Shown: positions 2,886 to 55,301, counted from the stretch's first letter. The stretch: DNA of 64,000 nucleotides from Planctomycetota bacterium (GCA_965223505.1 CBDCWP010000010.1:142971-206970); one strand, 5' to 3'. The notes: generated by a model from the sequence alone, not told the origin. Numbers and translations are program-made.

Positions 2886-3138
2886 GCGGAGGTCCCTCGG
2901 GCCGGGACCGGCGTCCCGCTTCGGAACGCCACCCGCAGGTCCGTCGATCCGCGCGGCTGCAATGATCGTAGTCCCATGAACACTCGAACTGGAAGCGACA
3001 AAGCATCAGTTATGAGCAGATCTCTCATGTTCAAGTGAGAATGGACCCCGAAATGAAGTGGAACGGAAATTGATGAGAGGTGAGTCAGGCCTGTCGATGG
3101 CCTGCCTGTCGCGAGCCCAGCTTCCGATGACGACTCCC

Positions 3139-4682
3139 TCAGCGGTGGGAGCTGCGGCACGTCGCGGGCCGCGTGCTGACGACCGGCGGGTCGTCGGGGG
3201 CGTACACACTGCCGTGAAGCGCTCTGGCCGCCGCGACGTCCGCCCAGATGCGGTCGCGCACGCGTTCGACCTCCTCGCACATGGCGTCGTTCCACGCGGC
3301 GTCCGACGGGCCGAGGGGGCGGCGCTCGCCGGGGTCGGCGGCGAGGTCGAAGACGGTCTCGTGCACGCGACCCGCGGCTCGATCGTATTGAATCACGAAC
3401 TTCCAGCGTTCGGATCGCACACTTGCCAGGATGGCGCGGTGGCCGGGGCCCGCGTTGTTGCGCGTCAGCCGCTCCTGCGAGATGACGGGACGGCCGGAAG
3501 CCTCGTTCGAGCACCGGCAAGAAGGAGCGACCACGCGTGCCGGGCTGTGATGTCAGTCCGGCCCAGCCCATGAACGTCGGCAGCACGTCAATCAGCCCGA
3601 CACACTCGTTCACGAGGGCAGGGCGGTCGAACGGGGCGGGGCCGGTCATCACGAGCGGAATGTGGACCAGCTCGTCAAAGAGTTGCCGGCCGTGCCCGAG
3701 CATGCCGTGCTCGCCAAACGTCTCGCCGTGGTCGGCGGTGACCACGAGAAGCGTGTTCTCGAGCAGGCCCGCCGTACGCAGCTCGTCGACGGCGCGCTCC
3801 AGGACCGAGTCGACCCAGCGCACGCCGGCGAGATACGCCGTCCTCAACTCGTCGGCCAGCGCCGCATCGGGCTTCGCGGCGAATCCGTGGACGCGTACCC
3901 GACGACCTCGTTCTGGAAGTACGCGCCGTGGTGAGCGGTCATCAGCTCACGACCGGGCCGATCGAGCCAGGTAGACCCTCGTCATGTCGCGGGGTGTGGT
4001 GATCGCCGCCGGATCGAAGGTCTCCGCGTACGCGCGAAGCTCCTCCGGCGTCCATGCGGCGTGCGAGTCCGGAACGCGGTGGTTGGCCCGACCGTACGGG
4101 TCGTGGGCCTCGAAGGTGTGCAGGTACAGGAAGAACGGCTTGTGGGGGTCGCGCTCCGATTGCCAACGCTCGATCGCCGGGCGGGTGCCCTGGAGGCCGA
4201 ATCCCTCGTTCACCGATCCGCGCTGAATCCCTGTAAGATCGAGTGGTCGTCTCGACGAACCACGGCGCGCCGGTGAATACCGCGGTCTCGTAGCCGTGCT
4301 CGTCCCTCAGCAGCTCCGCGAAGGTGGTCACACCCGCGGGCAAGTGCGGAACGCCCTTGGTCGAGTCGCAGCCGTGCTCGCGCGGAAGAAGTCCGGTCAG
4401 CATGCTGGTGATCGACGGAACGGTCCACGGCGCGGGCGCGGCAGCGCTCTCGAACGCGACGCCGTCCGCCGCCATCGACGCGAGGAACGGCATGTGCGCC
4501 GGCTCCTGGCCGGGCAGCGCGACGGCGTCGCGCCGCAATGAGTCGATGACGATGATGATCAGATTAGGCGCCGGTCGCGCCTCGGCGTTGCCGTCGCTTT
4601 GCGGCCGCGCACCGTCGTCGCCGCAGCCGATGCCGACGGCGGCGAAAGCGACGAGTAGCACGATGGCTCGGAGAACGTTCAA
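3139..4682 (-). pseudogene. Sulfatase-like (alkaline-phosphatase superfamily) lipoprotein gene interrupted by several frameshifts and one in-frame TGA
   Basis: Sulfatase family pieces appear in 3 frames across four ORFs: NLIIIVIDSLRRD...WTVPSITSMLTGLLP, PFFLYLHTFEAHDPY, LLVVTADHGETFGEHGMLGHG...GRSFLPVLE, and RWKFVIQYD...FDLAADPGERRPL. Putative TTG start at 4682 with a GGAAG Shine-Dalgarno and signal peptide NVLRAIVLLVAFAAVGIGC. Confidence 0.55.
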
Positions 4683-39587: not shown

Positions 39588-39776
39588 CGTCGGGCGGCTA
39601 CATTCGTCGGGATCTCACGGCATGAGATACGCCGCGGCCGTGAGCACGGCCGCGGTGATCGACGCCTGGAGGTAGAGCCGGCGCGACTTCGCGCGTAGCG
39701 CGTCGCGCAACGCCTCGTCGTCGATCGCTTCCGTCTTGCCGTTCACCTCGCGCACACCCTGTGCGGCGCGCGCGAC

Positions 39777-39974
39777 TCACGTGCCCGCCGCGGCCTGGAA
39801 GAAGCTCAGGCCCGCGACGAACAGCGGCAAGAACAGAAGCAGGCGCCAGGTCTTCGCGAACCCCTGCTGGTCGAACCAGAACAGGATCCCGCCGCAGACC
39901 AGGAGGATCACGAAGCCGCTCCACCAGCGTTTCGAGCGGCCCCCGCGGTCGAGATTGGTCGCGTTCTTGGACAA
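39777..39974 (-). CDS. Possible 65-aa small two-TM membrane protein (DUF2892/YgaP-like flavour)
   Basis: TTG start with a GGGAG Shine-Dalgarno 7 nt upstream. Very high GC3. It is the C-terminal tail of an otherwise spurious long antisense ORF. Confidence 0.3.
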   Translation of the reverse strand: MSKNATNLDRGGRSKRWWSGFVILLVCGGILFWFDQQGFAKTWRLLLFLPLFVAGLSFFQAAAGT

Positions 39975-40031
39975 GGTCGAGCTCCCGCGCCAACGCGCTG
40001 CCGCCGGATTGCATCCTACACTTGCTCGGCC

Positions 40032-42191
40032 ATGAAACTCCGTCGCGCCCTTTGCCTGATTGTCCTGATCTCGGCCTCCCGAGGACTCTGTGTGCCGAGC
40101 GCAGACGGCGAGGAACGGATCGAGCGGCGCGCGCCGGGCACGATCGTGCTCCGCGGCGACCCCGACCGCGTCGCCGGACACCGCATCGTGCCGGCGTTCC
40201 CGCGGCTGCGGTTCCGGCGGCCGCTCTACTTCGGCTTCCTCCCGGACGGTTCGGGCCGGCTGTGCGTGTTGGAGCAGGACGGACGCGTCTTGCTGTTTCC
40301 CAACGCCGACAACGTCGGCCCGGAGCAGGTCCACGTCGCGCTCGACATCCGGCAGAAGGTCTATCGGAAGCACAACGAAGAGGGCCTGCTCGGCATCGCG
40401 TTCCACCCGCGGTTCGCCGAGAACCGAACGCTGTTCATCCACTACTCGGCCAACGGCCCGCGCCGCGGCGTCGTCTCGCGCTTCCGGATGAATCGCGCGC
40501 GAACGAAGATCGATCCCCGGAGCGAGCGCGTCGTCCTGGAACAGCGCCAACCGTGGGGCAATCACAACGGCGGGGGGCTGGAGTTCGGTCCGGACGGGTA
40601 CCTGTACATCACGTTCGGCGACGGCGGCGCCGGCGGCGACCCCCAGGGCAACGGCCAGAATCTCGGCACGTGGCTGGGCTCGATCTTGCGCATCGACGTG
40701 GATCGCAAGTCGCCGTACGCGGTTCCGCCCGACAACCCATTCGTCAAGCACCGCGGCGCGCGCCCGGAGATCTGGGCGTACGGTCTGCGCAACGTGTGGC
40801 GATTCTCGTTCGACCGGCTGACCGGCGATCTGTGGGCCGGCGACGTCGGTCAGAACGCGTGGGAAGAGATCGACCTGATCGTCAAGGGCGGCAACTACGG
40901 CTGGAAGATCCGTGAAGGCGCGCATCCGTTCCGCGGGCAGGGCCGAACGGAAGGCTTGATCGATCCGGTGATCGAGTTCGACACCTCCCAAGCGCGATCC
41001 ATCACCGGCGGCTACGTGTACCGCGGCAAGAAGCTCCCGGGCCTCGTCGGTACGTACGTCTACGCGGACTATGCGACCGGCAACGTGTGGGGCTTGAAGT
41101 GGGACGGCGAGACGGTGCGCGAGAATCGCTTGCTCGGCCGCGGCCGCAGCGTGTCGAGCTTCGGAGAGGACGCCGACGGCGAAGTCTACTTCACGTCTTT
41201 CGACGGTCGCATCTACACGTTCACACGTCCGCGTCATGCGAACGCGGGCGGGCGATTCCCGCGCAAACTCTCCGAGACGGGTCTGTTCACCGACACCGCC
41301 GCGCTGACGCCGCACGCCTCGCTGATTCCGTACGAGGTCAACGTGCCGCTCTGGTCCGACGGGGCGGCGAAGCAGCGCTACGTCATGCTGCCGGGCATGG
41401 AGCGGGTGCGTGTCGGTGCCGACGGTCGCTTCACGTTCCCCCAGGGCACGATCTTCGTGAAGACGTTCTTCGCCGGCACCTCGGCGAAGGCCCCGCGGCT
41501 CGAGACCCGACTCTTTGCCCGTCGTGACGAGGGTTGGCGGGGCTACACGTACGTCTGGAACGAGGCGCAGACCGACGCCGAGCTGATCGACGGCCGCGTC
41601 ACGGCGCCGACCTCCGCCCAGGCGCGTCGCGCGGGACTGGCCGACCGCTGGACGTTTCCGAGCCGTTCGGACTGCATGAGCTGCCACACGGAGGCAGGGG
41701 GCTCGGTGCTCGGTTTTCGCGCGGAGCAGCTTCACCGCACGAACGAGCACTTCGACGAGGCCACCGTCAGCCGGCTCGAGGTGCTGCAGCGCATCGGCGT
41801 CTTCGAGGAAGGCGCCGACCCACGCGCCGTGACGTCGTTTCCGCGGTGGGACGACGGCAAAGCACCCCTCGACGGCCGGGTCCGCGCGTACCTGGATACG
41901 AACTGCGCGAGCTGTCATCAGCCGGGCGCGCCCGGCAACGCTCGCATCGACCTGCGGTACGACACGCCGCTCGGCGAGTCGCGCATGCTCGAGGAGCCGC
42001 CGGGCGACGACGACCTGGGCGTGCCGAACGCGCGCATCGTCAAACCGGGCCGTCCGAATCAGTCGCTGCTGCTGCTTCGCATGTTACGCACCGACGAGAA
42101 GGGCATGCCGCACATCGCCCACGAGTCGGTCGACCGCAAGGCCGTCGACCTCGTCACGCGATGGATTCGATCGCTGCGTCCGCTGAAGTAG
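40032..42191 (+). CDS. PQQ-dependent sugar dehydrogenase (GSDH/sorbosone dehydrogenase family) fused to a C-terminal dihaem cytochrome c domain (two CxxCH)
   Basis: Signal peptide. HNGGGLEFGPDGYLYITFGDGG and the other GSDH propeller motifs. CMSCH and CASCH haem-binding motifs. Confidence 0.9.
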   Translation: MKLRRALCLIVLISASRGLCVPSADGEERIERRAPGTIVLRGDPDRVAGHRIVPAFPRLRFRRPLYFGFLPDGSGRLCVLEQDGRVLLFPNADNVGPEQVHVALDIRQKVYRKHNEEGLLGIAFHPRFAENRTLFIHYSANGPRRGVVSRFRMNRARTKIDPRSERVVLEQRQPWGNHNGGGLEFGPDGYLYITFGDGGAGGDPQGNGQNLGTWLGSILRIDVDRKSPYAVPPDNPFVKHRGARPEIWAYGLRNVWRFSFDRLTGDLWAGDVGQNAWEEIDLIVKGGNYGWKIREGAHPFRGQGRTEGLIDPVIEFDTSQARSITGGYVYRGKKLPGLVGTYVYADYATGNVWGLKWDGETVRENRLLGRGRSVSSFGEDADGEVYFTSFDGRIYTFTRPRHANAGGRFPRKLSETGLFTDTAALTPHASLIPYEVNVPLWSDGAAKQRYVMLPGMERVRVGADGRFTFPQGTIFVKTFFAGTSAKAPRLETRLFARRDEGWRGYTYVWNEAQTDAELIDGRVTAPTSAQARRAGLADRWTFPSRSDCMSCHTEAGGSVLGFRAEQLHRTNEHFDEATVSRLEVLQRIGVFEEGADPRAVTSFPRWDDGKAPLDGRVRAYLDTNCASCHQPGAPGNARIDLRYDTPLGESRMLEEPPGDDDLGVPNARIVKPGRPNQSLLLLRMLRTDEKGMPHIAHESVDRKAVDLVTRWIRSLRPLK

Positions 42192-42194
42192 CGC

Positions 42195-43178
42195 CTACAA
42201 GAACTTGGTCTTGAGCTTCTCGGCGATCTTCTGCGCTTCCTGGCCTGCCTTGGTGTTCTCGTACTTCTTCTTCGTCAGCGACTTGATGATGGCGTACTGC
42301 TTCTTGTAGTTCGACTCTTCCGCCATCTTCGCTTTGGCCTTCGCGAGCTTCTTGCTGGCATCCACCTCGAGCTTGAGCTCCTTGTCCTTCAGGATCTCCT
42401 TGGCGGCGGCCTGCGCCTGCTTGCCGTAGTCGTGCCCCTTGAACTCCTTGGCGACGCGCTCGTAGGCGAGGAACGCGTCGTACACGTTGCGCTCGCGCAG
42501 CGCCGCCGCCGCCTCCTCGAGCGAAGAGGTCGCGGTCCACTCCAACCAGGCCTTGATCTCGTTCGCGGCTTCCAGCTCGTCGCCTTCGACCTTTTCGCCC
42601 TCGATGGCCGCGTTCACCTTCTTGAGCGCGTCGGCGAACTTCTGCTTGCCGATGGCCTTCTCGACCTTCGAGAGCGACGCCGGGAACGCCGGAAGGAGCC
42701 GGATGCTCGCCAGGGCCTCCTCGATCATCTCGGTGGTGACGGACGCCGGGTGGTCCACGACGAGCACCTTGCCGCGCGCGTCGATCAGAACCGCCGAGGG
42801 GTAGCTGTTGCGGCCGTACGCCGCCATGGAGTCGGTTTTCTCGCTGATGATCGGGTGCTTCGCGTCGGTCTTCTCGATGAACGCCTCGATGCGCGATGCC
42901 GGTTCCTTCGAGATGGAGATGACCGTCAGGCCCTTGGGGCCGTACTTCTCGTGAAGCTCGTCCAGGTGACCCACCTGGTTCACACACGGGCCTCAGGTCG
43001 TTGCGAAGAGCTCGAGGAACACGACGCGCCCGCGCAGGTCCTCGAGGGTGACCGGGTCGGTGTTGAAGAACTCGTCGCCCTCGAAGGCGGCGGCGGGATC
43101 CCCGACCCCGGCGACGGCCGAGGTGCTGGACAGGAGGAGAACGCCGAGGACGGCGCCTGCAACGGCGATCTTGCTCAT
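42195..43178 (-). CDS. Secreted TlpA/ResA-like thioredoxin-fold protein with in-frame TGA at the catalytic Cys position (candidate selenoprotein, U-G-P-C motif) and a C-terminal Lys/Ala-rich helical extension
   Basis: Two same-frame ORFs (42993-43445 and 42195-42983) are separated only by TGA at 42993-42995. Signal peptide MSKIAVAGAVLGVLLLSSTSAVA. Context VVFLELFATT-TGA-GPCV aligns with WCxxC. Hairpin immediately downstream of the TGA. Confidence 0.7.
42962..42978 (-). promoter_or_regulatory. bSECIS-like hairpin (CCAGGUG-GGU-CACCUGG; 7-bp stem, GGU loop) starting 15 nt after the in-frame UGA
   Basis: Perfect inverted repeat read directly from the sequence. The position relative to the UGA fits bacterial SECIS geometry. 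Confidence 0.5.
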
Positions 43179-43231: not shown

Positions 43232-44332
43232 CTACGCGCTCGTCAGCACCACGGCGCCGGCTTGCCCGAGAAGGCCGCCGGTCAGGACCAAGACCCCGTT
43301 CGAGGCCCGTTGGGCGGCCAGCGCGACGACGATCGACTCGTGGGCTGCGGCGAGATACCCCAAGTGCTTCGACGGCGTCCAGGCCTCGGCTTCGAGCGTC
43401 GCAACGGCCGCGTCCGCCTCGGCGCGGGCCGCCGCGGTCGCGCACGGGGGCGTCACGACGAGGGCGATCCGCGCTCGGCGCGCGTCACGCAACGCGCCCT
43501 GAAGCGCCGCCGCCAGCGTCTGTCGTTCGGGCCCGTAGCCCACCGCCGGCCCCGTTGACGCGGCCGATCCGGCGATGGTCGCGAGCGGACGCGCGCCGCG
43601 TCGCTCCGCGTGCGCGCGCGTCTCGATCACCAACGCGCCCGCGCCGTCGCCGGGCTCCAGCGCGTCGAGCTCGAGCTGATCGATCTCGTGCAACGCGACG
43701 GGCGCGCTGCCGACCGACGCGCCGACGACGACGGCGAGGTCGAGCCGTCCGGTCGCAACGGACCGGGCTGCGAGCGAGAGCAGGTGTTGCGACGTCGCGG
43801 AGAACCCCGCCACGCTCGTGTTCGCGCCTTGCAGCTCGTACCAGGTAGCGAGAAACGAGTAGACGTTGTTCTTCAGGTTCTCGAGCAGGAAGAACGGCTT
43901 CACGCGGCGCGCGCACGCCTGGTTGAGGGTCTTTGCCTCGTACGTTCGCCCTTCCGGGTTCGCGGCCACGAACCCCGGCCGGAAGTCCAGGCACGCCCAC
44001 TCGGTTGCGTCGCCCTGTGCGAGATAGAGTCCCTTTCTCGGGCCCGCGATCTCGCCGCCGTCCAGCCCGGCTTGCAGCGCCGCCTCGCGCGTGGCGTCCA
44101 CGGCGAACCGGCCGCTGGCGCTCAGGAACTTGATCTGGCTCTCGAGGTCGCGCGGCACGTCGCAGTGGATCGACGTGTCCTCGATGCGCGCGCCGCGAAC
44201 GGGCGTTGCGCCGTAGAGATTGCGAACGGCGGACGCGCCGGATGTCAGTTGCGACGTCGTGGTATCCACGCCCCGCCCGAGCGCGGTGACGACACCGGCG
44301 CCGGTGATGACGACGTCGCACTTGTCGTTCAC
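43232..44332 (-). CDS. Ketosynthase-like protein lacking the active-site Cys (chain-length-factor-like)
   Basis: GTG start in GTGA overlap with the upstream dehydratase. Thiolase/KS fold, with VAGFSATS in place of the CSS nucleophile. Confidence 0.8.
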   Translation of the reverse strand: MNDKCDVVITGAGVVTALGRGVDTTTSQLTSGASAVRNLYGATPVRGARIEDTSIHCDVPRDLESQIKFLSASGRFAVDATREAALQAGLDGGEIAGPRKGLYLAQGDATEWACLDFRPGFVAANPEGRTYEAKTLNQACARRVKPFFLLENLKNNVYSFLATWYELQGANTSVAGFSATSQHLLSLAARSVATGRLDLAVVVGASVGSAPVALHEIDQLELDALEPGDGAGALVIETRAHAERRGARPLATIAGSAASTGPAVGYGPERQTLAAALQGALRDARRARIALVVTPPCATAAARAEADAAVATLEAEAWTPSKHLGYLAAAHESIVVALAAQRASNGVLVLTGGLLGQAGAVVLTSA

Positions 44333-44781
44333 GACGACTCCGGCGCGCCGCGAAGCATGTCGAACGACCGCCGGGCCGCCTCTCGCGAGGCGAGATCCTC
44401 GAGCGCGGTCACCCGTGCTTCGAACTCGATCACGGCGGCGCGTTCGCCCTCGACCGACGCCTCGGCCCGGTAGGCGCGGCGTGCTTCGTCGTCCGACGCC
44501 GTCCGCTCGATCGACAGGTCCACGCGGTCGCCCGGCGCGGCGAACCGGTAATAGCGGGCGGAGACGACGCGATCCAAGAGCACCCAACGCTCGAACGCCG
44601 AGGACGACGCCTCCATCCAGCCGGCGAGCTGTGCGAGCGCCTCGAGAATCAGCATGCCGGGCAGGATCGGCCGCTCGGGAAAGTGCCACTCGAGGTAGTC
44701 CTCGCTCATGGCCACGTTCTTCCAGCCGGTTGCGCGGTCGGCCTCGATGGACCGGATCCGATCGACGAGCAGGTACCTCAT
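44329..44781 (-). CDS. FabZ/FabA-like hot-dog beta-hydroxyacyl-ACP dehydratase
   Basis: Motifs LLVDRI and EWHFPERPILPGMLILEALAQ. ATGA overlap with upstream acpS. Confidence 0.8.
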   Translation of the reverse strand: MRYLLVDRIRSIEADRATGWKNVAMSEDYLEWHFPERPILPGMLILEALAQLAGWMEASSSAFERWVLLDRVVSARYYRFAAPGDRVDLSIERTASDDEARRAYRAEASVEGERAAVIEFEARVTALEDLASREAARRSFDMLRGAPESS

Positions 44782-45176
44782 GCGCCCGCCCTCTGGAGGA
44801 TCACCGATGCCATGGCGTGCGCGCCGGTGTGGGTCAACGAGACCGACGCTGCTCCGAGCGCCTGCGTGCGGGCGACGCGCAGCGGCCGTCCCGAGAGCCG
44901 AAGCGTCGGCGCGCGGCCTTCCCGCACGACTTCGATCTCCTTGAGCGCGCGGTCGATGCCGGTGGGCGTGATGCCGATGCCCAGCGCCTTGAGCGCGGCC
45001 TCCTTCGCCGCGAAACGGGCCGCGAAGTGCGGCAGCGGATCCGGGTGTCGCCGGCAATAGCTGCGCTCGTCGTCGGTGAACACGCGCGCCTCGAACGCTG
45101 CGTGCCGCGCCATCACATCGCGCAGATGCGCGACGTCGACGAGGTCGATGCCGTGGCGAACCGAGCCCTTCTTCAT
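44778..45176 (-). CDS. acpS: Holo-ACP synthase (AcpS-type 4'-phosphopantetheinyl transferase)
   Basis: GIDLVDV...AAKEAALKALG signature. ATGA overlap with fabG. Confidence 0.85.
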   Translation of the reverse strand: MKKGSVRHGIDLVDVAHLRDVMARHAAFEARVFTDDERSYCRRHPDPLPHFAARFAAKEAALKALGIGITPTGIDRALKEIEVVREGRAPTLRLSGRPLRVARTQALGAASVSLTHTGAHAMASVILQRAGA

Positions 45177-45928
45177 GCGACCGACATCCCTCCGTCGACC
45201 AGGAAACCCTGGCCCGTAATGTAGGCGGCGTCGTCCGAGCAGAGGAAGAGGACCAGGCCCGCCACGTCTTCCGGCGTGCCGAACCGTCCGGCCGGAATGC
45301 GTTCGAGGACCTGATCGCCGGCACGCCGCTTGACCACCGCCGTCATGTCCGTGTCGATGAAGCCGGGCAGAACCGCGTTGGCCTGGATATTGCGCCCCGC
45401 CATCTCCAGGGCGGTGGCGCGCGTGAACGCGAGCACGCCGCCTTTGGCCGCGGCGTAGTTGGCCTGCCCGACGCCGCCGCGCACCGAGCTGATCGAGGCG
45501 ATGTTGACGATGCGACCGGCGCGCGCGCGCATCATCGGCCGCAGCGCGGCGCGCGTGCAGAGATAGACCCCCGTGAGATTCACGTCGATGACGCGCTGCC
45601 AGTCCTCGGGTCGCATCGTGAGCAGCAACGTGTCCTTCACGATGCCGGCGTTGTTCACGAGCGCGTCGAGGCGACCGTGGTCATCGAGCACACGTTCGAA
45701 GAGCGCGCGTACGCCGTCTTCGTTGCCGACGTCGGCCCGGACGGCTTGGGCGCTGCCGCCGGCGGCCTCGATCTCCGCGACCAAGGACGCGGCGTCATCG
45801 GCGGACGACGCGTAGTTGGCGATCACGTGGGCGCCGTTCGCTGCGAGACGCCGGGCCACCGCCCGTCCGATGCCGCGGGAAGCGCCCGTCACGAGCGCGA
45901 CGCGGTCATGCAGGTTGTCGCGAATCAT
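45173..45928 (-). CDS. fabG: 3-oxoacyl-ACP reductase (FabG-type SDR)
   Basis: TGASRGIGRAVA cofactor motif, NNAG, and catalytic S...YAAAK. ATGA overlap with the upstream KS. Confidence 0.9.
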   Translation of the reverse strand: MIRDNLHDRVALVTGASRGIGRAVARRLAANGAHVIANYASSADDAASLVAEIEAAGGSAQAVRADVGNEDGVRALFERVLDDHGRLDALVNNAGIVKDTLLLTMRPEDWQRVIDVNLTGVYLCTRAALRPMMRARAGRIVNIASISSVRGGVGQANYAAAKGGVLAFTRATALEMAGRNIQANAVLPGFIDTDMTAVVKRRAGDQVLERIPAGRFGTPEDVAGLVLFLCSDDAAYITGQGFLVDGGMSVA

Positions 45929-47154
45929 GCGTCGTCTCCGAAAGCCCGCACCGCCAAGACGGCGTTCTGTCCGCCGAACGCGAAGGAGTTGTTCAGCGCG
46001 GCGGTGACCACCGCTTGCCGGCTCGCGTCCGGGACGAGGTCCAGATCGCATGCCGGGTCCGGTTGCGTCAAGTTGCGTGTCGGCGGCACCGCGCCGCGGC
46101 GGATGGCGAGGACGCAGAAGATGAACGCGACGCCGGCCGCGGCCGAGAGCAGATGGCCGATCGCGCCCTTGCCGGACGACACGGCCAACGCGGCGGCGTG
46201 ATCCCCGAACACCGTGTGGATCGCCCGGACCTCGGCGGGGTCGTTGCGCTTCGTCCCGGTCCCGTGGGCGTTGACGAACTGGACCTCGCTCGGCGCGAGT
46301 CCGCCGTCGCGCAGCGCGGCGTCCATGGCTTCCGCGGCGCCGCGGCCGTCCGGCGGCGGTGCGGTCGTGCGATAGGCGTCCAGCGAGGAGCCGTAGCCGG
46401 CCACCTCGGCGTAGATGCGCGCCCCACGGGCGCGGGCGTGTTCGAGCTCCTCGAGCACGACGCAGCCGGCGCCCTCGCCCATGACCAGCCCCGAGCGCTT
46501 GCGGTCGAACGGCTTGCAGGCCGCGGCCGGATCGTCCCCGACCGAAGCGGAGGCGCCCAGCAGCACGAAGAAGACGAGTCCCAGCGGGTTGATCATCGAG
46601 TCCGCGCCGCCGGCGATCATCCAGTCCGTCTCGCCCCGGCGAATGCTGCGAAACGCGGCGCCGAGCGCCTGGTTGGACGCGGAGCAGGCCGTGGTCACCG
46701 CGTGCACCGGACCGCCGAGACCCAATTCCCGGGCCAACAGTACGGCCGGCAGCTCCGCCGTGTTGCGGATCAGACTCTCCGGATGGACCGCCGCCGCATC
46801 GTCGACGCCGACGTCCTCGAGCCGGTGGACGCCGGGGCCGGAACCCAGGATCACGCCGGCCCGGTCGTGCGCCCCGCGTTCGATGCCGGCGTCGGCAGCC
46901 GCGTTCGTTCCGGCGGCGACGCCGAACAGCGTGCGCAGATCGCATGCCGCGGCGGCAGGCAGGGAGGTGCGCAGGCGCTCGACCACGGCGTCGTCGACCT
47001 CGCCGACCGCGCCCGTGGGGGGGCGCGTCGCACCGTGCCGCCGCGACGCCGTGACGCCCGCGTCTCCGCCCAGCATGCGCTCCCACACCGTGTCCACGTC
47101 GTCTCCGAACGGTGTGACCAGCCCCAGCCCTGTGATGACCACGCGCCGGCTCAT
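45925..47154 (-). CDS. Beta-ketoacyl-ACP synthase (KS, active-site Cys present)
   Basis: TTACSAS nucleophile, NAHGTGT and GHLLSAAG His motifs. ATGA overlap with the upstream dehydratase. Confidence 0.9.
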   Translation of the reverse strand: MSRRVVITGLGLVTPFGDDVDTVWERMLGGDAGVTASRRHGATRPPTGAVGEVDDAVVERLRTSLPAAAACDLRTLFGVAAGTNAAADAGIERGAHDRAGVILGSGPGVHRLEDVGVDDAAAVHPESLIRNTAELPAVLLARELGLGGPVHAVTTACSASNQALGAAFRSIRRGETDWMIAGGADSMINPLGLVFFVLLGASASVGDDPAAACKPFDRKRSGLVMGEGAGCVVLEELEHARARGARIYAEVAGYGSSLDAYRTTAPPPDGRGAAEAMDAALRDGGLAPSEVQFVNAHGTGTKRNDPAEVRAIHTVFGDHAAALAVSSGKGAIGHLLSAAAGVAFIFCVLAIRRGAVPPTRNLTQPDPACDLDLVPDASRQAVVTAALNNSFAFGGQNAVLAVRAFGDDA

Positions 47155-47594
47155 GCGCCGAGGACCCCGCCGTAGTACGCGAACCGCTTCCGCAGGACGT
47201 CGGGTTCGGGATGGGGGAGATGACCGTACAAGACCCGGCCGATGCGCGCGACCTCGACCCCGTCGACCTCAGCCCACGCGTGCCCGATCGACCCCTTGGG
47301 GTTCGTGCCCCGTAGCTCGCCGAAGAGCGTCAGCGTGCGCCCGGGACCGATCTCGGGGACCACCTCGACGTCCTCCAGCACCGAGAGAACGACCATGAGC
47401 GTGTAGTCGTGGCGGTGGATCGCGAGCCAACCGAGGAGCTGCACCATCGCCTCGATGATCAGCGACGACGGCACGAGCGCCCTGCGATCGAAGTGGCCGC
47501 GCAGGTACTCCTCGGAGATCGACAGTGACTTCACGCCCTCGATGCGGTTGCCGGGCTCGAAACGGGTGACGCGGTCGAAGAGAAGGAATCTCAC
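47151..47594 (-). CDS. FabZ-like hot-dog dehydratase
   Basis: GTG start (GGAG Shine-Dalgarno) in GTGA overlap with the upstream stop. Sequence FLLFDRVTRFEPG...LGWLAIH. Confidence 0.75.
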   Translation of the reverse strand: MRFLLFDRVTRFEPGNRIEGVKSLSISEEYLRGHFDRRALVPSSLIIEAMVQLLGWLAIHRHDYTLMVVLSVLEDVEVVPEIGPGRTLTLFGELRGTNPKGSIGHAWAEVDGVEVARIGRVLYGHLPHPEPDVLRKRFAYYGGVLGA

Positions 47595-48541
47595 GGCGAC
47601 TCCAACAGGATCGCAGCGCAACCGCCGTGGCTGGCCCGCGTGAGCACGAGCGCGCTGCCCGCGCCGGTCGCGTGGAAGTGGTCCACGCAGGCGACGAGAT
47701 CGACGAGCGGTTCCGCCGCGCCGCGGCTCGAGCGCACGGCGCCGCGTTGCTCGACCAGCGCATCGGCGAGGCCGTAGGCCTGGAGCTCGAACCACAGGTC
47801 CAGTGGCGCGCGGACGTGCCCGACGCTCTGCGGATCGCGTTCTCGAAGCACCGTGCGAATGGCGCGCGTGCAGGCGTCGCCGGAGCCGTACTCGAAGGTC
47901 GACGTTCCCGCGACGACGAAGGCCAGGGCAGCGACCCCTCGATCCTTCGCCGACGCCTCCGACTCGAGCACGCACGCCGCGCCCGCCTGCTCGCGTTCGG
48001 CCGGCTCACCCCGCAGCGCGTCCCGTAGCCGGGCGGGCGTCGTCAGGTCCTCGGACACGCCCGCGCACAGCGCGGCCTGTGCGGCGCCTTCGTCGATGGC
48101 GTGATGGGCTTCGATGAGCGCGCGCATGCCGGCATCGGACTCGCTGGCCAGGACGGCGTTGTCTCCGCGAATGCCGAGGTCGGTGGCGATCTGTCCCGCC
48201 GCGACGTTGTTCAGCATCGCGAGCGGCCACAACGGGTGAATCGAACGGTACGCGCCCGCGAAGAAGCGGGCTTCGTCGATCCGCCCGTCCACGCGCGACG
48301 CGTCGGCGGCCGCGACGAGATCGTCGGCGCCGTCGACCATGCCCATGCCGAAGAAGAGCCCCACGCGGCGCGGGTCCAGCTCCTGCAGACGTCCCCGGCG
48401 GTACGCCTCCGGCGCGACCGTCTCCAACATCCGACCGTGCGCGCCGAGAATGCGGAGCGCCGGATCGGCATCGACGTCCATCACGTCCGACGACGCCATG
48501 TCGCTTCGACACGCGGCCGTGATCGCGACGCGCCCGGCCAT
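47591..48541 (-). CDS. KS-fold protein without catalytic Cys (chain-length-factor / KS-beta-like)
   Basis: LASESDAG in place of the Cys nucleophile. Start overlaps the upstream KS stop by 1 nt (TGATG). Confidence 0.8.
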   Translation of the reverse strand: MAGRVAITAACRSDMASSDVMDVDADPALRILGAHGRMLETVAPEAYRRGRLQELDPRRVGLFFGMGMVDGADDLVAAADASRVDGRIDEARFFAGAYRSIHPLWPLAMLNNVAAGQIATDLGIRGDNAVLASESDAGMRALIEAHHAIDEGAAQAALCAGVSEDLTTPARLRDALRGEPAEREQAGAACVLESEASAKDRGVAALAFVVAGTSTFEYGSGDACTRAIRTVLRERDPQSVGHVRAPLDLWFELQAYGLADALVEQRGAVRSSRGAAEPLVDLVACVDHFHATGAGSALVLTRASHGGCAAILLESP

Positions 48542-49830
48542 CAAGCAGCCGGTCCCAGGCACAGACAGCCGTTCTGCCCGCCGAACCCGAACGAACTGGA
48601 GAGCACGACCGAGTGTTCCATCTCGCGCGCCTCGTTGGGCACGTAGTCGAGGTCGCAGCGCCGGTCGGGAAACTCGTAGTTGATCGTGGGGAGCACCACG
48701 CCGTCGCGCATGCCGCGAAGGCTCAGGATCGCTTCGATCGCGCCCGCGGCGCCGATCGTGTGCCCGAGCATGCTCTTGTTGCTGGAGACAGGCACCCGCG
48801 CGGCGCGCCCGCCGATCACGCGCTTGATCGCGAGCGTCTCGACGGGGTCGTTGGTCGGTGTCGAGGTGCCGTGGGCGTTCACGTAGTCGACGTCGTCGGG
48901 CGTGAGCCCGGCGTCGCGGATCGCGCGCCGCATGGCGAGCACGGCCCCGTCGCCGCGCGGATGCACGTCGGTGATGCGATAGGCGTCGGCCGAGTCTCCG
49001 TATCCGAGGATCTCGCCGAGCGCGTCCACCCCCCGCGCGCGTGCGTTCGCGAGCGTCTCCAGGATCAAGATGCCGGCGCCTTCGGCGATCACGAAGCCGT
49101 TGCGCTTTCGATCGAACGGTCGGGACGCGGCCTGCGGCGATGGATAGCGCCTGGTGAGCGCACCGAGAATGGCGAACCCGAGGTAGCCCGAGTAGGACAG
49201 CAACGGCTCGGCGCCACCGGTGACGACGGCGTCGGCGCGGCCCTCCCGTAGGAGCCGTGTCGCCTCGCCGATGGCCTGCGCACCCGCGGCGCACGCGCTC
49301 ACGATCGGCAGCGCCGCGCCGCGCGCGTCGACGTAGTTCGCCAACAGCGCCGGCGCCGCGTCGGGCTGACGGACGGTGAATTGGCGGCTGTCGTACTGCG
49401 CCTCCCCGGCGAGGCCGGCGGCGTCCAGCACGCCGTCGTCGTCGGTATGGCGAACGTAGCGGTCGATCTCGGCGATGCCGGGGGTCGAGCCGTGGCCGCC
49501 GAGCACGACGGCGACGCGGGTGCGGTCCTCGATCTCGTCGAGCTTCGCGGTGCGGCGCGCGTCGTCGGTGGCCGTGCGTGCGAGGCGTAGCTCGGAGCCG
49601 CCCCGCTCGTCGTCCGGGTGCGGCGGCGCGAGATCGTCGTCATCGATCTGGCCGGCGATGTCGCACGGCAGGCCCGTGGCGTCGAAGCGGCGCACGACGT
49701 CCACGCCCGAGCGGCCCGCGCGCATGGCCGCGAAGACGTCGTCCAGGTCGCGGCCGAGCGGTGTGACGAGCCCCATGCCGGTGACGACGACGCGCTGCCG
49801 CGGGTCGATGTCGTCACGGCCCGCGAGCAC
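48541..49830 (-). CDS. Beta-ketoacyl-ACP synthase II (FabF-like)
   Basis: VVVTGMG, SACAAG nucleophile, NAHGTSTP, KSMLGHTIGAAG. Confidence 0.9.
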   Translation of the reverse strand: MLAGRDDIDPRQRVVVTGMGLVTPLGRDLDDVFAAMRAGRSGVDVVRRFDATGLPCDIAGQIDDDDLAPPHPDDERGGSELRLARTATDDARRTAKLDEIEDRTRVAVVLGGHGSTPGIAEIDRYVRHTDDDGVLDAAGLAGEAQYDSRQFTVRQPDAAPALLANYVDARGAALPIVSACAAGAQAIGEATRLLREGRADAVVTGGAEPLLSYSGYLGFAILGALTRRYPSPQAASRPFDRKRNGFVIAEGAGILILETLANARARGVDALGEILGYGDSADAYRITDVHPRGDGAVLAMRRAIRDAGLTPDDVDYVNAHGTSTPTNDPVETLAIKRVIGGRAARVPVSSNKSMLGHTIGAAGAIEAILSLRGMRDGVVLPTINYEFPDRRCDLDYVPNEAREMEHSVVLSSSFGFGGQNGCLCLGPAA

Positions 49831-49834
49831 GGGG

Positions 49835-50407
49835 CTAGGCCCCCGCGAAGAGCTTCTGCTCGGACTCGACCTTCTGGATCCACTGTTGGATCAACACGTC
49901 TCCGTCGGGGTAGACGCAGTCCGCGCCGCATGCCCCGCACTTGACGCGGGCGCCGTCCTCGCTCTTCCACGTGTCCTGCGCGTTGCAGGCGGTGCACGCC
50001 TGTGGCAGGTGGTCCAGGATGTTCGCTACGCCGTCCGCGACGATCTTCGGTGTGACGAGCGCGGGGATCTCGTCGGCGTACAAGCCGGCTTCGAGCGCGT
50101 CGAGATCGCCCATGTACATGCGCAGCAGCTTCGCCGCCGGCTCCGTGATCTTGTTGTCCCTGTCGATGGCGACGCCGTCGCCCAGCTGCTCCTCGACGTG
50201 GTCCAGGATCAGCTGCGAGGCGAGCTGGATGCCGAACGCGTTCTCGAGCCGGAAGTTCACGTCGAGGAAGTCGATGGACGTGGCCTGGAGCGACTTGACG
50301 ACCGAGGCGTCCATCGCGATGTCGTCCTCGTTCAGGCGGAGGGTCGCGGCCAGGGCGCTGCGGACTTCGGCCTCGATGCGTTCGCGACTGACGAGCGGGT
50401 TCGACAT
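49835..50407 (-). CDS. Acyl carrier protein fused to a C-terminal Cys-rich (CxxC-x17-CxxCxxxC) zinc-ribbon-like domain
   Basis: ACP signature ATSIDFLDVNFRLENAFGI (phosphopantetheine Ser), then about 110 extra residues ending ...CTACNAQDTWKSEDGARVKCGACGADC.... Confidence 0.75.
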   Translation of the reverse strand: MSNPLVSRERIEAEVRSALAATLRLNEDDIAMDASVVKSLQATSIDFLDVNFRLENAFGIQLASQLILDHVEEQLGDGVAIDRDNKITEPAAKLLRMYMGDLDALEAGLYADEIPALVTPKIVADGVANILDHLPQACTACNAQDTWKSEDGARVKCGACGADCVYPDGDVLIQQWIQKVESEQKLFAGA

Positions 50408-50475
50408 CGATCGGGGTCTCCGGGGCGGCGGGTCGGTGTACCCGGCACTCGGGGCGTTTGCAAGGCGTGCGAAGG

Positions 50476-51234
50476 TCAGTCGGCGCTCCCGCGAAACAGC
50501 CGATTGGAGAGGCCCCGATCTACCACGAGCGTTTGTCCCACCACGCCCGCCGACCCGGCGCCGCACAGGAAACGGACCGCGGCGGCCACCTCCGCTTCGG
50601 GCACGAAGAACCGCTCGGGCAGCGACTCGAGCTCCGGCCAGACCCGCCGCAGCGTCTTGTAGGCGTCCGTCTTGACCAGGCCCGCGCAGACGGCGTTCGC
50701 GCGAATGCCCCGCGGACCCAGCTCTTCGGCCCACTGTCGCGTCATCGACTCCATGGCGGCCTTGATCGGTCCGAGGGGGTACTGGCGGTTCATGAATCGC
50801 GAGCCCAGACTCGAGATGAACACGATCGATCCCCCCTGGCGCTCCAGCAGGGGCAGCGCCTTCTGAACGCAATAGACGTTGCCCAGCAGATTCGTGTCGA
50901 CCAGCTGCCGCAGGTCACGCTCCAGCAACCGCGCCGTGTCCTTGAACGGTGCGCGCGCCGCGTTGAGCACGAGGATGTCGAGGCGGCCGAACGCCTCCTG
51001 CACGCCGGACAGGAGCGCGTCGACCTGTTCTTTCGACGCGATGTCCGCACCGACGAAGGTCGCCCGACGCCCGAGCGCGGCCACGGCCTCCACGGTCTCG
51101 TCGGCGGCGCGTCCGGGCGCGCGTCCATGGACCACGACGTCGGCGCCGTCCCCGGCGAGCCGTAACGCGATCGCGCGGCCGATGCCGCGGCTGCTGCCGG
51201 TGACCAGTGCGACCTGTCCGTCGAGGGTTCCCAT
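50476..51234 (-). CDS. SDR family oxidoreductase (second ketoreductase-like enzyme of the operon)
   Basis: VTGSSRGIGRAIA, NAA, and catalytic S...Y...K. Confidence 0.85.
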   Translation of the reverse strand: MGTLDGQVALVTGSSRGIGRAIALRLAGDGADVVVHGRAPGRAADETVEAVAALGRRATFVGADIASKEQVDALLSGVQEAFGRLDILVLNAARAPFKDTARLLERDLRQLVDTNLLGNVYCVQKALPLLERQGGSIVFISSLGSRFMNRQYPLGPIKAAMESMTRQWAEELGPRGIRANAVCAGLVKTDAYKTLRRVWPELESLPERFFVPEAEVAAAVRFLCGAGSAGVVGQTLVVDRGLSNRLFRGSAD

Positions 51235-51341: not shown

Positions 51342-52523
51342 ATGACGATTGCGATCGAGGACCGCGTGGCAGTCAAAGAGACGACCAGAACCGTGCGCAA
51401 CTTCCAGGCGTTGAGCTCGCTCTTCGATGCGATCGAGTCCGGCGAGACGCCGAAGCCCCGATTGGATCGATCTCGCCGGCGACGCCCGGCTCACGTCGCT
51501 GGACGACGAGCAGCTGCGCGGCGTCCTCGCGCGGATTCACGCGTGCACGTTGCGGGGGGTTCAAGGCCAACAACGTGAAGAAGCGCGGGAAGCAGGAGTT
51601 CCTGCGCTACTGGCAGTCGATCACCCGGAGCGGGTTCCACGACTTCGCGGAAGACTGCTGGATGAAGTGCTACGACTCGCCGCACGTCGAGAACTACGAC
51701 TACGTACAGGCGTACCTGGACCGCGGGCTCGACGCGCTCGACCCCTACATGGTGTATTCGTCCGTTCTCGGCACGTGGGAGTACTCCGTCGAGGACTTCG
51801 TCAACACGGAGCTCTGCCGCGACGTGCAGACCGTCGTGGAGCCGCTGGCAGGCAGCGCCGAGTTCTGCCACACGGGGCACTTCCGGTATCCGGACATGAA
51901 GCTTTTTCATGTTCGACCTCGACGAAGAGGCCAAGAAGCACGTCGAGGAGAAGTTCTGGCACCCGCAGACGCGGCGCGAGTACCTGATCGGCGACGCGCT
52001 TGCGGAGGAGACCTGGAAGCAGGTCAAGGCCTTCTCGCACGGGAAGTCGCTCAGCTACATCGGCAAGCAGAGCCACAACTTCTTCGACACGAAGGAGCTC
52101 GTGCAGCTGCTCGACTGGGGTACGCGGTACACCGACTACTTCATGCTCGAGGTGAGTGAACCCTATCTCGTCGAAGACGAGCCCACGCGCGACGATCTCA
52201 CTCGGCGCGAGATGAAGGCCGCGGGATTCCGCGTGGCGCTCGACGACGTCGACGACCTCGTCCCGAACCCGTTGACGAACCGGCTCGACTTCAGCTTGAT
52301 CGCGTGGAACAAGGCGGGCGACAAGCGCACGCTGTTCGACTATCTCGGTTGGATCGGGTGGCAGGCGCCGACGCTGACCGCGCTCGGTCGTTTCCTCGGT
52401 CTGGAGTGCATGTACTTCCACTCGGAGGACACCGAGTTCCTGCCCGTCACCGAGGGCACGGAGACGTCCGACTGCCGCGAGAACAACACGTTCCTGCTGT
52501 TCCGACGGCCCGCCGACGCGTAG
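51342..52523 (+). pseudogene. Hypothetical ~390-aa protein whose reading frame is broken three times by single-base insertions in C4, G6 and T5 homopolymer runs
   Basis: Four consecutive ORF pieces in frames 0, 1, 2, 2 read continuously if one base is removed at 51456-51459 (CCCC), 51554-51559 (GGGGGG) and 51913-51917 (TTTTT). High GC3 throughout. Confidence 0.5.
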
Positions 52524-52946: not shown

Positions 52947-53168
52947 CGAAGCTCCTCGTGCGAGATTTTCCTCACAGGCGTGGGGTCCCGTTCTCAGCTG
53001 CGCAGCGGGTGCTCTCGACACAACCTCCTCCCGTAGGCGAAGTTGGCCCGTTTTCGGCCCGGAACGGGTGCTGAGGACGCTCCGAATACGCAAGAGCGGG
53101 ACCGATTCGGCGTCCGGTGCCCGCGGCACGCCCTTCGCGCAGTGGCGCACACTCCCGGAGGGCTTGAC

Positions 53169-55301
53169 ATGGCTACCCGCAAGACCGTGTTCGTCGCGAT
53201 CGTCGTCGGCATCGCGTGTGTCGTGGCGGTTCAGGTGTCGGCGCAGGAGGGGCTGCCGGAGCGCAGTCCCGGCACCGTACGCCTCGAAGGAGACCCGGAC
53301 GGTCTGCCGGAGTACACGATCGTCAAAGCGTTCCCGAATCTGCGGTTCGAGCGGCCGACGTGCATTGCGAGCCCGCGCGACGGCTCGGACTCGCTGTTCG
53401 TCGCGGAGCAGGACGGCCGGATCAAGGGCTTCGAGAACGATCGCGACACCAAGAAGACCTGGGTGGCGCTCGACATCCGGAAGAAGGTCTCGCGTCAACA
53501 CAACGAGGAGGGCCTGCTGGGTCTCGCCTTCGATCCGGCGTTCAAGAAGAACCGCGCCGTCTTCGCGTACTACAGCACGTCGGAGCCGCGGCGGACGGTG
53601 CTGATGCGCTACAAGGCGACGTCGAACCGCCGGTACTTCGATCGACGCAGCGAGTCGTTGGTGCTGCGTCAGCGGCAACCAACCGGCAGCCACAACGGTG
53701 GCTGCATGGCCTTCGGTCCCGACGGCATGTTGTACCTGTCCATCGGTGACGGCGGCGAGGCCGGCGATCCGCACGGCCATGGCCAGAACCTGCAGGACTG
53801 GCTCGGCACGATCTTGCGCATCGACGTGAGCGGCGCACAGCGCTTCGCGGTGCCGCCCGACAATCCCTTTGCCAACACCCAGCACGTTCGGCCGGAGATC
53901 TGGGCGTACGGCTTCGCGAACGTCCGGGGCCTCGGATTCGACAGCGTCACCGGCGACCTGTGGGCCAGCGACGCGGGCGCCGGCAAGTTCGAGGAGATCA
54001 ACCACGTCCGGGCGGGTTCGAACTACGGCTGGCCGCTTCGCGAGGGCGCGGACGTTCACAGCAAGGGGAACGCGTTGACGCCCCTGCGGGGGCCCGTTGC
54101 GGTGTTCCCGCGCGGCACCGCGCGGCGACTGGTGGGCGGCATCGTCTATCGCGGCCGGCGTCTGCCGCAGCTCGTCGGCGCGTATCTCTGCGCCGACTAC
54201 GAGACCGGCACGATGTGGGCGCTGCGCTTCGACGGGACGCGCGTCAAGGAACGACGTCGGCTGGGCCGCGCGCCCGGCATCACGCACTTCGGAACGGACG
54301 CAGCGGGGGAGGTGCTCTGCACGGCCGCTGACGGCTACGTCTACACGCTCGCGCCGTGGAGCGGGGACAAGTCCAAGGCCGTCTTCCCGCAACGTCTGTC
54401 CGAGACGGGTCTCTTCAGCGACATCGCGTCGGTGACGCCGATCCCGGCGTTGATCCCGTACGACGTGAGCACGCCGCTCTGGTCGGACGGCGCCGGCAAG
54501 TCGCGGTTCGTCATGCTGCCCGATCTCGAGAAAGTCAAGATCGCCAAGGACGGCACGTACGACTTCCCGGTGGGCACGATCTTCGTCAAGCACTTCTTCC
54601 AGGGTGCGACGATCGAATCGGCGTTTCGCCGCCTGGAGACGCGGCTGTACACGCGCGGCGCGGAGGGATGGGCCGGCTACACGTACGTGTGGTCGGACGA
54701 CCGGTCGGACGCGTTCCTCATCGACGGTCGTGTGGAGAAGACGTTTCAAAGCGACGGAAAGGTGTCGAAGTGGACGTTCCCGAGTCGCGGCGACTGCTCC
54801 AGCTGCCACACTGCCGTCGCCAACGAGATCCTCGGCTTCCGGCGCGAGCAGCTCGACATCTCGATGAAGTACGGCGACCTGGAGATGAACCAGCTCGACG
54901 CGCTGGAGGCGATGGGAGTGTTCGAGGGCAAGAACAAGCGCAAGCACACCTGGCCGGCGTGGCCGGCGGAGGGCGAGGACCTCGACAGGCAGGTGCGGGC
55001 CTACCTCGACGCCAATTGCGCGATGTGCCACCAGCCGGACGGCCCGGGGAACGCCAACATCGACCTGCGCTACGACACGCCGTTGAAGAAGACGAACGTG
55101 CTTGATCGCAAGCCGGGCATGTGGAACCTCGGGGTCTTCGACGCGCGGCTCATCGCGCCGGGCGATCCGGAGCGGTCGATCCTGTACCTACGCATGAAGC
55201 GCACCGACCTGAAGGGCATGCCGACGATCGCGCACAACATCCCGGACGAGAACGCGCTCGCGCGCATCGAGAAGTGGATCCGGGCGATGCCGAAGAAGTA
55301 G
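53169..55301 (+). CDS. Paralogue of the PQQ-dependent sugar dehydrogenase / dihaem cytochrome c fusion protein
   Basis: Signal peptide (MATRKTVFVAIVVGIACVVAVQVSA). Same architecture and collinear similarity to 40032-42191, including CSSCH and CAMCH. Confidence 0.9.
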   Translation: MATRKTVFVAIVVGIACVVAVQVSAQEGLPERSPGTVRLEGDPDGLPEYTIVKAFPNLRFERPTCIASPRDGSDSLFVAEQDGRIKGFENDRDTKKTWVALDIRKKVSRQHNEEGLLGLAFDPAFKKNRAVFAYYSTSEPRRTVLMRYKATSNRRYFDRRSESLVLRQRQPTGSHNGGCMAFGPDGMLYLSIGDGGEAGDPHGHGQNLQDWLGTILRIDVSGAQRFAVPPDNPFANTQHVRPEIWAYGFANVRGLGFDSVTGDLWASDAGAGKFEEINHVRAGSNYGWPLREGADVHSKGNALTPLRGPVAVFPRGTARRLVGGIVYRGRRLPQLVGAYLCADYETGTMWALRFDGTRVKERRRLGRAPGITHFGTDAAGEVLCTAADGYVYTLAPWSGDKSKAVFPQRLSETGLFSDIASVTPIPALIPYDVSTPLWSDGAGKSRFVMLPDLEKVKIAKDGTYDFPVGTIFVKHFFQGATIESAFRRLETRLYTRGAEGWAGYTYVWSDDRSDAFLIDGRVEKTFQSDGKVSKWTFPSRGDCSSCHTAVANEILGFRREQLDISMKYGDLEMNQLDALEAMGVFEGKNKRKHTWPAWPAEGEDLDRQVRAYLDANCAMCHQPDGPGNANIDLRYDTPLKKTNVLDRKPGMWNLGVFDARLIAPGDPERSILYLRMKRTDLKGMPTIAHNIPDENALARIEKWIRAMPKK

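Follow-up and report, generated by a model that had tools for sequence, protein, structure and literature searches.

Among described systems, the nearest precedent for the locus reported here appears to be the rhizobial cluster for very-long-chain fatty acids (VLCFAs). That cluster encodes a dedicated acyl carrier protein (ACP), AcpXL, together with FabZXL, FabF1XL, FabF2XL, and the acyltransferase LpxXL, and it is said to occur in every bacterium with VLCFA-modified lipid A (PMC5613085, PMC11901934). Here, we analyze a ten-gene operon, g1 to g10, that occupies positions 43232–51234 on the minus strand of a 64,000-nucleotide (nt) stretch of DNA from a Planctomycetota bacterium (GCA_965223505.1 CBDCWP010000010.1:142971-206970; hereafter, the window). 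The operon is genuine and strongly conserved, and it very probably encodes a dedicated acyl-chain system distinct from housekeeping synthesis. The reading that we prefer, and to which we give an even chance, is that this operon goes back to type II fatty acid synthase (FAS II) and makes a special acyl chain destined for an envelope lipid, not a pigment or an antibiotic. Literature searches on the cluster in Planctomycetota and on the combination of an ACP with a chain-length factor (CLF) found no description of the operon.

Because the window is 65–72% G+C, raw lists of open reading frames are noisy. The gene calls were instead made from a frame plot of third-position G+C (GC3), which makes ten successive frame switches across the interval, and from start-codon mapping and translation; together, these define ten consecutive genes. 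The G+C content of the operon itself (44001–50000) is 70–72%, slightly above that of the rest of the window (65–69%). The initial annotation, generated from the sequence alone, had proposed the order short-chain dehydrogenase/reductase (SDR), ACP, ketosynthase (KS), KS-like protein, FabZ-like dehydratase (DH), KS, FabG, AcpS, FabZ-like DH, and KS-like protein, and the Pfam and NCBIfam matches reproduce it. It had also described the genes as tightly overlapping at eight of nine junctions. Overlaps of 1 or 4 nt are indeed real, and the correct count is seven of nine: TGATG at g3/g4, where the start of g4 overlaps the stop of g3 by 1 nt; GTGA at g4/g5 and g9/g10; and ATGA at g5/g6, g6/g7, g7/g8, and g8/g9. 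A spacer of 4 nt (TAGCCCCGTG) lies between g2 and g3, and one of 68 nt between g1 and g2. The identical seven-overlap pattern recurs in two orthologous loci, L001 and L002. A promoter scan returned 0 promoters and the terminator-like sites fell solely within coding sequence, and neither Rfam nor a tRNA search gave a match in the window.

Conservation of this arrangement goes far beyond chance, since the ten-gene order is shared by 14 Planctomycetota genomes, each representing a species, and by loci of two other phyla. With the window proteins as queries, tblastn recovered the ten genes in unchanged order on every contig of sufficient length; identity to the Planctomycetota relatives is 55–75% for the enzymes and ∼40% for g10. 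The g10 family is narrowly distributed. Among 5.8 billion proteins it has one exact match and ∼20 homologs at 39–47% identity, the named ones all being from Planctomycetota, and it occurs in 14 of 185,579 species-representative genomes, all of them metagenome-assembled genomes from a subset of that phylum. Searching through the ACP family reached the same ten-gene order in Ca. Tectomicrobia (GCA_016192135.1; L021) and in four contigs from the ENA (L022–L025), which we call Nitrospinota-like from ACPs that are named Nitrospinota elsewhere.

The four KS-family proteins are of two kinds. Catalytic-residue status was read from an alignment of the orthologs to Escherichia coli FabF (C163, H303, K335, and H340). 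All four residues are invariant across all orthologs of g3 (48541–49830, 429 aa) and g6 (45925–47154, 409 aa), two FabF-like ketosynthases that are 40% identical to each other. These proteins score 406 and 411 bits, respectively, against TIGR03150 (fabF), and both lie above the cutoff of the PRK07314 subfamily in NCBIfam. The PDB matches of g3 are headed by FabF structures (306 bits), with a 408-aa KS entry, 7F27, at 213 bits and the actinorhodin KS at 209 bits.

The remaining two members are g4 (47591–48541, 316 aa) and g10 (43232–44332, 366 aa). The Pfam match of g4 covers the N-terminal KS domain only, and that of g10 is to the N-terminal ketoacyl-synt domain. In g4, a truncated CLF-like protein, the cysteine position is taken by Glu, Asp, Ala, Gln, or Pro across orthologs and the C-terminal catalytic residues, the histidines included, are absent; the catalytic Cys and His are missing even from the full-length Tectomicrobia versions (442 aa). 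Its top PDB match is the CLF AntE of a type II polyketide synthase (PKS) (6smo_C, E = 0.002). At the cysteine position, the g10 protein of the window has Ser, and its orthologs have Ser, Ala, or Gly. The window protein also has Pro at H303 and Tyr at H340, and the g10 proteins of the Tectomicrobia and Nitrospinota-like loci retain Ser-His-Lys-His. The initial annotation had called both proteins Cys-less, and no ortholog of either has a Cys at the catalytic site. Its caveat that they might be diverged FabH or FabB proteins with catalytic residues elsewhere was also checked, and the alignment contains no relocated residues. Because the catalytic Cys is lost across orthologs in the FabF alignment, g4 and g10 are best described as conserved, predicted non-condensing KS paralogs and not as FabH or FabB.

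The carrier protein is atypical. The g2 product (49835–50407, 190 aa), the dedicated ACP of the operon, has a PP-binding match of 21.8 bits, with the phosphopantetheine serine in ATSIDFLD, and a C-terminal extension of ∼110 residues that ends in a zinc-ribbon-like CxxC-x15-CxxC element. An AlphaFold model computed on 24 homologs is of high confidence (pLDDT 92, pTM 0.87). When this model was compared with the PDB by Foldseek, residues ∼1–70 matched ACPs, including the type II PKS carrier AntF, AcpP, and a specialized ACP of R. palustris (3LMO), the last being one of many such matches; beyond these residues, Foldseek found no structural match in the PDB. Because the four cysteines are conserved only in the Planctomycetota members (those of Nitrospinota and Tectomicrobia keep one), the extension is a trait of the whole g2 family, and the putative zinc binding is a feature of one lineage. 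The family is small but not tiny: a set of 5.8 billion proteins gives ∼120 clusters at 90% identity, and a set of 1.84 billion representatives gives 293 at 50% identity (E ≤ 1e-10). In two loci of another lineage (L028, 3308–4662, and L029, 266–2058), a FabL-like SDR and an extended ACP stand by themselves, joined by a 4-nt overlap, and no KS, DH, or ketoreductase (KR) genes are found nearby; the ACP of L029 carries an extra 140-aa C-terminal tail, for a total of 326 aa.

The other enzymes would supply the rest of an elongation cycle. The SDR g1 (50476–51234, 252 aa) leads the operon in every locus. It matches Pfam adh_short_C2 at 1.7e-52, its top NCBIfam match is FabL (185 bits against a cutoff of 328), and its top PDB match is Bacillus subtilis FabL (3OIC, 2e-37). 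A motif, SSLGSRFxNxxYPLGxxKAAME, is strictly kept in all lineages and gives this atypical SDR a Y-x5-K arrangement without the canonical YxxxK. We tentatively regard g1 as an enoyl-ACP reductase. The assignment of g7 (45173–45928, 251 aa) as a FabG 3-oxoacyl-ACP reductase is firmer, at 308 bits against TIGR01830 with an equivalog cutoff of 297.75. Both dehydratases are FabZ-like. The first, g5 (47151–47594, 147 aa), matches FabA in Pfam and FabZ in NCBIfam; the window protein keeps the catalytic His (GHF) and Glu (IIEAM), and the His is gone in the orthologs of L014–L016. The second, g9 (44329–44781, 150 aa), matches FabZ in NCBIfam at 84 bits, and its His (WHFP) and Glu (LILEA) are invariant across all orthologs. 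Finally, g8 (44778–45176, 132 aa) is an AcpS-type phosphopantetheinyl transferase (PPTase), with a Pfam ACPS match of 1.3e-14 and 66.5 bits against TIGR00516 (acpS; cutoff 59.8), and it is found in all loci but L027.

What points to an envelope lipid comes from the relatives. In L021–L025, an eleventh gene overlaps g10 by 4 nt and encodes a 320- to 340-aa member of PF03279, "lipid A biosynthesis acyltransferase." Its top NCBIfam matches are lipid A lauroyl acyltransferase models, all under cutoff, and it contains the HX4E motif (PHLGNWE). Two Planctomycetota loci, L017 and L027, have a complete PF03279 gene, divergently oriented, upstream of g1, and at the edge of locus L011, tblastn matches the first ∼110 residues of a PF03279 acyltransferase. 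An in-cluster LpxL-family acyltransferase is therefore true of the wider operon family and not of the window locus. Directly upstream of g1 and on the same strand, L010 and L011 carry a lipid-type family 2 glycosyltransferase (GT2) with GT21-like matches and a C-terminal membrane region, and in addition a GDSL hydrolase. In L012, the SDR and ACP genes are separated by an oppositely oriented gene (2413–3639, minus strand) for a 408-aa FAD enzyme of the Trp-halogenase family. In L027 (11870–13549), g4 is fused to a g5-type FabZ-like dehydratase in a protein of 559 aa, and the operon has no AcpS gene. This fusion supports a physical association between the KS-like protein and a dehydratase.

These observations suggest the following scheme. 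The AcpS-type enzyme g8 would activate the dedicated carrier g2. The active ketosynthase g3 would pair with g4, and g6 probably with g10, as KS/pseudo-KS heterodimers in which the non-catalytic partner would shape the acyl pocket and so set priming or chain length, by analogy with KS-CLF heterodimers. Such pairing is supported by two couplings, g3 to g4 and g9 to g10, and by the fusion of g4 with a g5-type protein in L027; the arrangement as a whole suggests two KS-pseudoKS-DH modules. Malonyl units would presumably be supplied through the housekeeping FabD. In each round, the FabG protein g7 would reduce, the FabZ-like proteins g5 and g9 would dehydrate, and the FabL-like g1 would probably saturate. 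The finished acyl-ACP would not be freed; an LpxL/LpxXL-family acyltransferase, encoded in or beside the operon in the relatives and not in the window, would move the acyl chain to lipid A or to another glycolipid. We infer the subunit pairing, the enoyl-reductase role of g1, the length and saturation of the chain, and the acceptor. An envelope lipid is favored over a free polyene on account of the LpxL-family acyltransferase that accompanies the operon in relatives, and the acceptor may perhaps be another glycolipid because some loci contain a GT2. Delivery to an envelope lipid by an LpxL-type enzyme could, in our judgment, fall either way with equal ease, and we consider a long and largely saturated chain somewhat less likely than not.

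Several observations weigh against this scheme. There is no PF03279 gene within 10 kb of the operon in the clade to which the window belongs (L001/6, L002/4, L008, L009, L012, L014–16, L026, and L030), and tblastn of the 64-kb window with the L017 acyltransferase finds no match. The Planctomycetota acyltransferases are only ∼30% identical to those of Tectomicrobia and Nitrospinota, so that the linkage may not go back to a common ancestor. Nor is the LpxL family confined to enzymes that act on lipid A, and a phosphatidylinositol mannoside (PIM) acyltransferase is among the weaker matches of the cluster enzyme. The FabL assignment of g1 depends on small margins, 185 versus 158 bits for the next family in NCBIfam and 132 versus 127 bits for a FabG that follows closely in the PDB, and its Y-x5-K spacing of Tyr and Lys fits neither reductase type. 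Lastly, some relatives have accessory genes near the operon, for a GT2, an acyltransferase, and (in L012) a halogenase-like FAD enzyme, of kinds that aryl-polyene (APE) lipid clusters typically contain as well.

These last genes bear on the main rival explanation, a polyene-type lipid pigment made in the manner of an APE cluster or a "highly reducing type II PKS." In such a pathway, the KS/KS-like heterodimers, the KR, and the pair of DHs would iterate without enoyl reduction, and an acyltransferase or glycosyltransferase would anchor the conjugated chain to a membrane lipid. The KS, CLF-like partner, KR, two hot-dog DHs, and ACP do mirror the ApeO-ApeC/ApeR/ApeQ/ApeI-ApeP core (PMC8358021), and APE clusters also yield a non-aryl conjugated C26:5 acyl chain (bioRxiv 10.1101/2020.12.19.423268). 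We nevertheless consider this explanation unlikely. When g1 to g10 were compared by BLASTP with the ape cluster of E. coli CFT073 and the Fab proteins of E. coli MG1655, no operon protein was nearer to Ape than to Fab. Identity to FabF, ApeR, and ApeO is 38%, 34%, and 32% for g3 and 38%, 32%, and 29% for g6; g7 is 44% identical to E. coli FabG and 40% to ApeQ; g5 and g9 match E. coli FabZ at E = 1e-13 to 1e-17 (1e-16 for g9) and have E > 0.2 against ApeP and ApeI; and g4 and g10 give no match to ApeC. Since the BLASTP and NCBIfam scores favor FabF, FabG, and FabZ, and the PDB scores of g3 favor FabF, the operon enzymes appear to be derived from FAS II and to have a KS/CLF-like organization. 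The ApeI-like family PF22818 is listed in the precomputed Pfam annotation of g9 orthologs, but a Pfam scan of the window protein at E ≤ 0.01 gives FabA and AfsA only. The acyltransferase of the cluster belongs to PF03279 and not to the PlsC type of ApeD, and the extra SDR, nearest to an enoyl reductase, is conserved and always comes first. Moreover, neither the window flanks nor any related locus contains genes for aryl-starter activation (an ApeH-type ligase or tyrosine ammonia-lyase [TAL]), a thioesterase, or LolA/MMPL export. The initial annotation had likened the operon to aryl-polyene and dialkylresorcinol loci while remarking that adenylation, thioesterase, and exporter genes were missing. 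The remark stands for the window flanks and the related loci examined; the likeness is not supported, because g3, g5, g6, g7, and g9 are nearer to Fab than to Ape and the accessory genes are absent. On these two grounds we reject the identification of the operon as an APE cluster.

A different rival holds that the operon is a type II PKS-like route to a diffusible specialized metabolite (an alkyl or hydroxy acid, for instance, or a lipid tail for some larger natural product), with release and tailoring enzymes encoded elsewhere. Type II systems of secondary metabolism are marked by KS/CLF-like pairs and by a dedicated ACP that has its own PPTase, the best structural match of g4 is the CLF AntE, no acyltransferase is linked in the window clade, and an orphan gene for a 380-aa protein is conserved beside the operon. 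Yet ∼20 loci contain no thioesterase, cyclase, ligase, nonribosomal peptide synthetase (NRPS), or transporter, the linkage to a lipid-A-type acyltransferase recurs in three phyla, and the enzymes score as FabF, FabG, and FabZ. The window-clade neighborhood is otherwise ordinary and syntenic, so it looks like clade synteny. Features of aromatic type II PKSs are also lacking: there is no conserved CLF glutamine at the cysteine position (Glu, Asp, Ala, Ser, and Gly are found), and there are no cyclase genes. We judge this route to be quite unlikely. Far less probable still is that the operon is simply the housekeeping FAS II of the organism. FabG and both KS proteins do lie at or near the cutoffs of the FabG and FabF families, AcpS is normally a housekeeping gene, and the 64-kb window holds no other fab genes. 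But neither the operon nor the window has FabD or FabH, a canonical 78-aa AcpP is lacking, the ACP bears a 110-aa extension, two of the four KS-family proteins are predicted to be catalytically dead, the g10 family is restricted to a subset of Planctomycetota (14 of 185,579 species representatives), and the SDR-ACP pair can stand without the other operon genes, as in L028 and L029. The earlier view of a dedicated, non-housekeeping FAS II/PKS-like operon, with two pairs of KS and non-catalytic partner, two DHs, two SDRs, and its own ACP and PPTase, is supported.

Next to nothing is known of the membrane and lipid A chemistry of uncultured Planctomycetota, Nitrospinota, and Tectomicrobia. Should the preferred reading hold, this conserved module of 10–11 genes would provide a genetic handle on an unusual envelope acyl chain in these phyla. 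At the protein level, the operon offers two objects for study, an ACP with a large structured extension and FabF/pseudo-FabF pairs in a system that is FAS-like, not PKS-like. It also carries a caution for genome mining: a rule-based tool would probably assign it to "aryl polyene" or "type II PKS-like," labels that find no support in the sequence comparisons. A bolder proposal, which we regard as rather unlikely, is that some Planctomycetota, Nitrospinota, and Tectomicrobia share an undescribed envelope-lipid pathway in which a new class of ACP, fused to a ∼110-aa domain that lacks structural relatives and would bind zinc in Planctomycetota, docks to the SDR and to two KS/pseudo-KS/DH modules. 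The chain would then be of a type so far unreported in these phyla, for example very long or (omega-1)-functionalized, and the 380-aa orphan would be a new acyltransferase family that replaces the LpxL type in the window clade.

The orphan gene lies upstream of the operon and diverges from it (51427–52523, plus strand; located by tblastn with the L001 ortholog). It encodes 380 aa in relatives and is split over three frames in the window, with frame changes at a G6 run (∼51560) and a T5 run (∼51905); it is either a pseudogene or the product of homopolymer sequencing errors, and the other window genes inspected are intact. The gene is found upstream of the operon in eight of 11 Planctomycetota loci with upstream sequence, and also in L026 and L030. 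The protein has no Pfam, NCBIfam, or PDB-profile match. A word-indexed homolog search returned 3 proteins, and the AlphaFold model on that shallow alignment is of low confidence (pLDDT 39). A methyltransferase-like motif spotted by eye, VEPLAGSGEF, remains unsupported. Since the wider neighborhood is also syntenic in the window clade (an L3-like gene, a glucose/sorbosone dehydrogenase [GSDH] gene, and a TlpA-like gene), the adjacency of the orphan may reflect relatedness and not function, and its membership in the system is doubtful. Paralogous glucose/sorbosone dehydrogenase genes (PF07995) flank the operon region on both sides, at 39699–42191 and 53037–55301, both on the plus strand. The first encodes a C-terminal cytochrome c domain, and the second sits between the orphan gene and a neighbor that adjoins the orphan in relatives.

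On the other side, 53 nt downstream of g10 and on the same strand, a gene at 42195–43178 encodes a secreted AhpC/TSA-Redoxin (TlpA-like) protein and contains an in-frame TGA at 42993–42995. This TlpA-like protein is likely a selenoprotein, because its redox motif, T-T-[TGA]-G-P-C, would read U-G-P-C if the TGA were decoded as selenocysteine. In the L002 ortholog (FRTW-TGA-GPC), the TGA is kept, and so is a 7-bp hairpin (CCAGGUG-GGU-CACCUGG) ∼17 nt downstream. Shuffling does not mark this hairpin as exceptional (z = −0.7), and the window contains neither a match to a SECIS family in Rfam nor a tRNA-Sec. Predicted membrane proteins of ∼120 aa, interrupted by an in-frame TGA in the conserved context (A/G)(G/K)T-TGA-V, are encoded in L001 (11162–11521), L002 (18603–18959), and L026 (17559–17930). 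They occur beside the operon in some relatives and also elsewhere in L002, and may constitute a second selenoprotein family.

It is useful to set the operon against the systems that it most resembles. Its catalytic domains belong to or border the FabF, FabG, FabZ, FabL/FabI, AcpP, and AcpS families of housekeeping FAS II, and each step presumably follows the same chemistry. It differs from housekeeping FAS II in having no FabD or FabH, an atypical ACP, apparently dead KS paralogs, and a restricted taxonomic distribution. Like the KS-CLF heterodimers of type II PKSs, highly reducing ones among them (for example, AntD-AntE, 6SMO, and Iga11-Iga12 of ishigamide synthesis, 6KXD), it places a Cys-less homolog directly downstream of an active KS and couples their translation. 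Here, however, the KS is FabF-like, the CLF glutamine is missing from the partners, no cyclase or aromatase is encoded, and a single operon holds two such pairs. With APE clusters it has in common a private ACP, two KS proteins plus a short non-catalytic KS-like partner, one KR, and two hot-dog dehydratases, and in both cases the product is expected on a membrane lipid. By contrast, it shows no sequence affinity to Ape proteins beyond a common FAS ancestry, it lacks the aryl-starter ligase, thioesterase, LolA/MMPL, and methyltransferase genes, and it has an extra SDR and an AcpS that APE clusters lack.

The last comparison is with the rhizobial acpXL-fabZXL-fabF2XL-fabF1XL-(adhA2XL)-lpxXL cluster. 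At the level of architecture only, both cluster a dedicated ACP with two FabF-family genes and a FabZ-type DH. Both include a co-clustered LpxL-family acyltransferase (in the operon relatives, not in the window), and in both the genes are partly translationally coupled. In both, the logic would be to assemble a special acyl chain on a private carrier protein and hand it over to an envelope lipid; the product of the rhizobial system is a C26–C34 (omega-1)-hydroxy fatty acid on lipid A. The NCBIfam models PRK06501, PRK06519, and PRK06553, which we take to cover rhizobial VLCFA proteins, give scores far under their cutoffs (339 of 629, 44 of 320, and 141 of 273 bits, respectively). As the scores stay under these family cutoffs, the comparison suggests a functional analogue of the rhizobial cluster, its nearest precedent, and not a demonstrated ortholog. 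The acyltransferase gene is absent from the window clade, and the hosts are Planctomycetota, Nitrospinota, and Tectomicrobia, not Alphaproteobacteria. To the rhizobial plan the operon adds two non-catalytic KS-like proteins, a second DH, FabG, a FabL-like SDR, and AcpS, and its ACP has a 110-aa extension, with a putative zinc ribbon in Planctomycetota. Overall, the logic of a private ACP plus an LpxL-type transferase, known from rhizobia, Brucella, and Legionella, would be extended by this operon to distant phyla with a richer set of enzymes.

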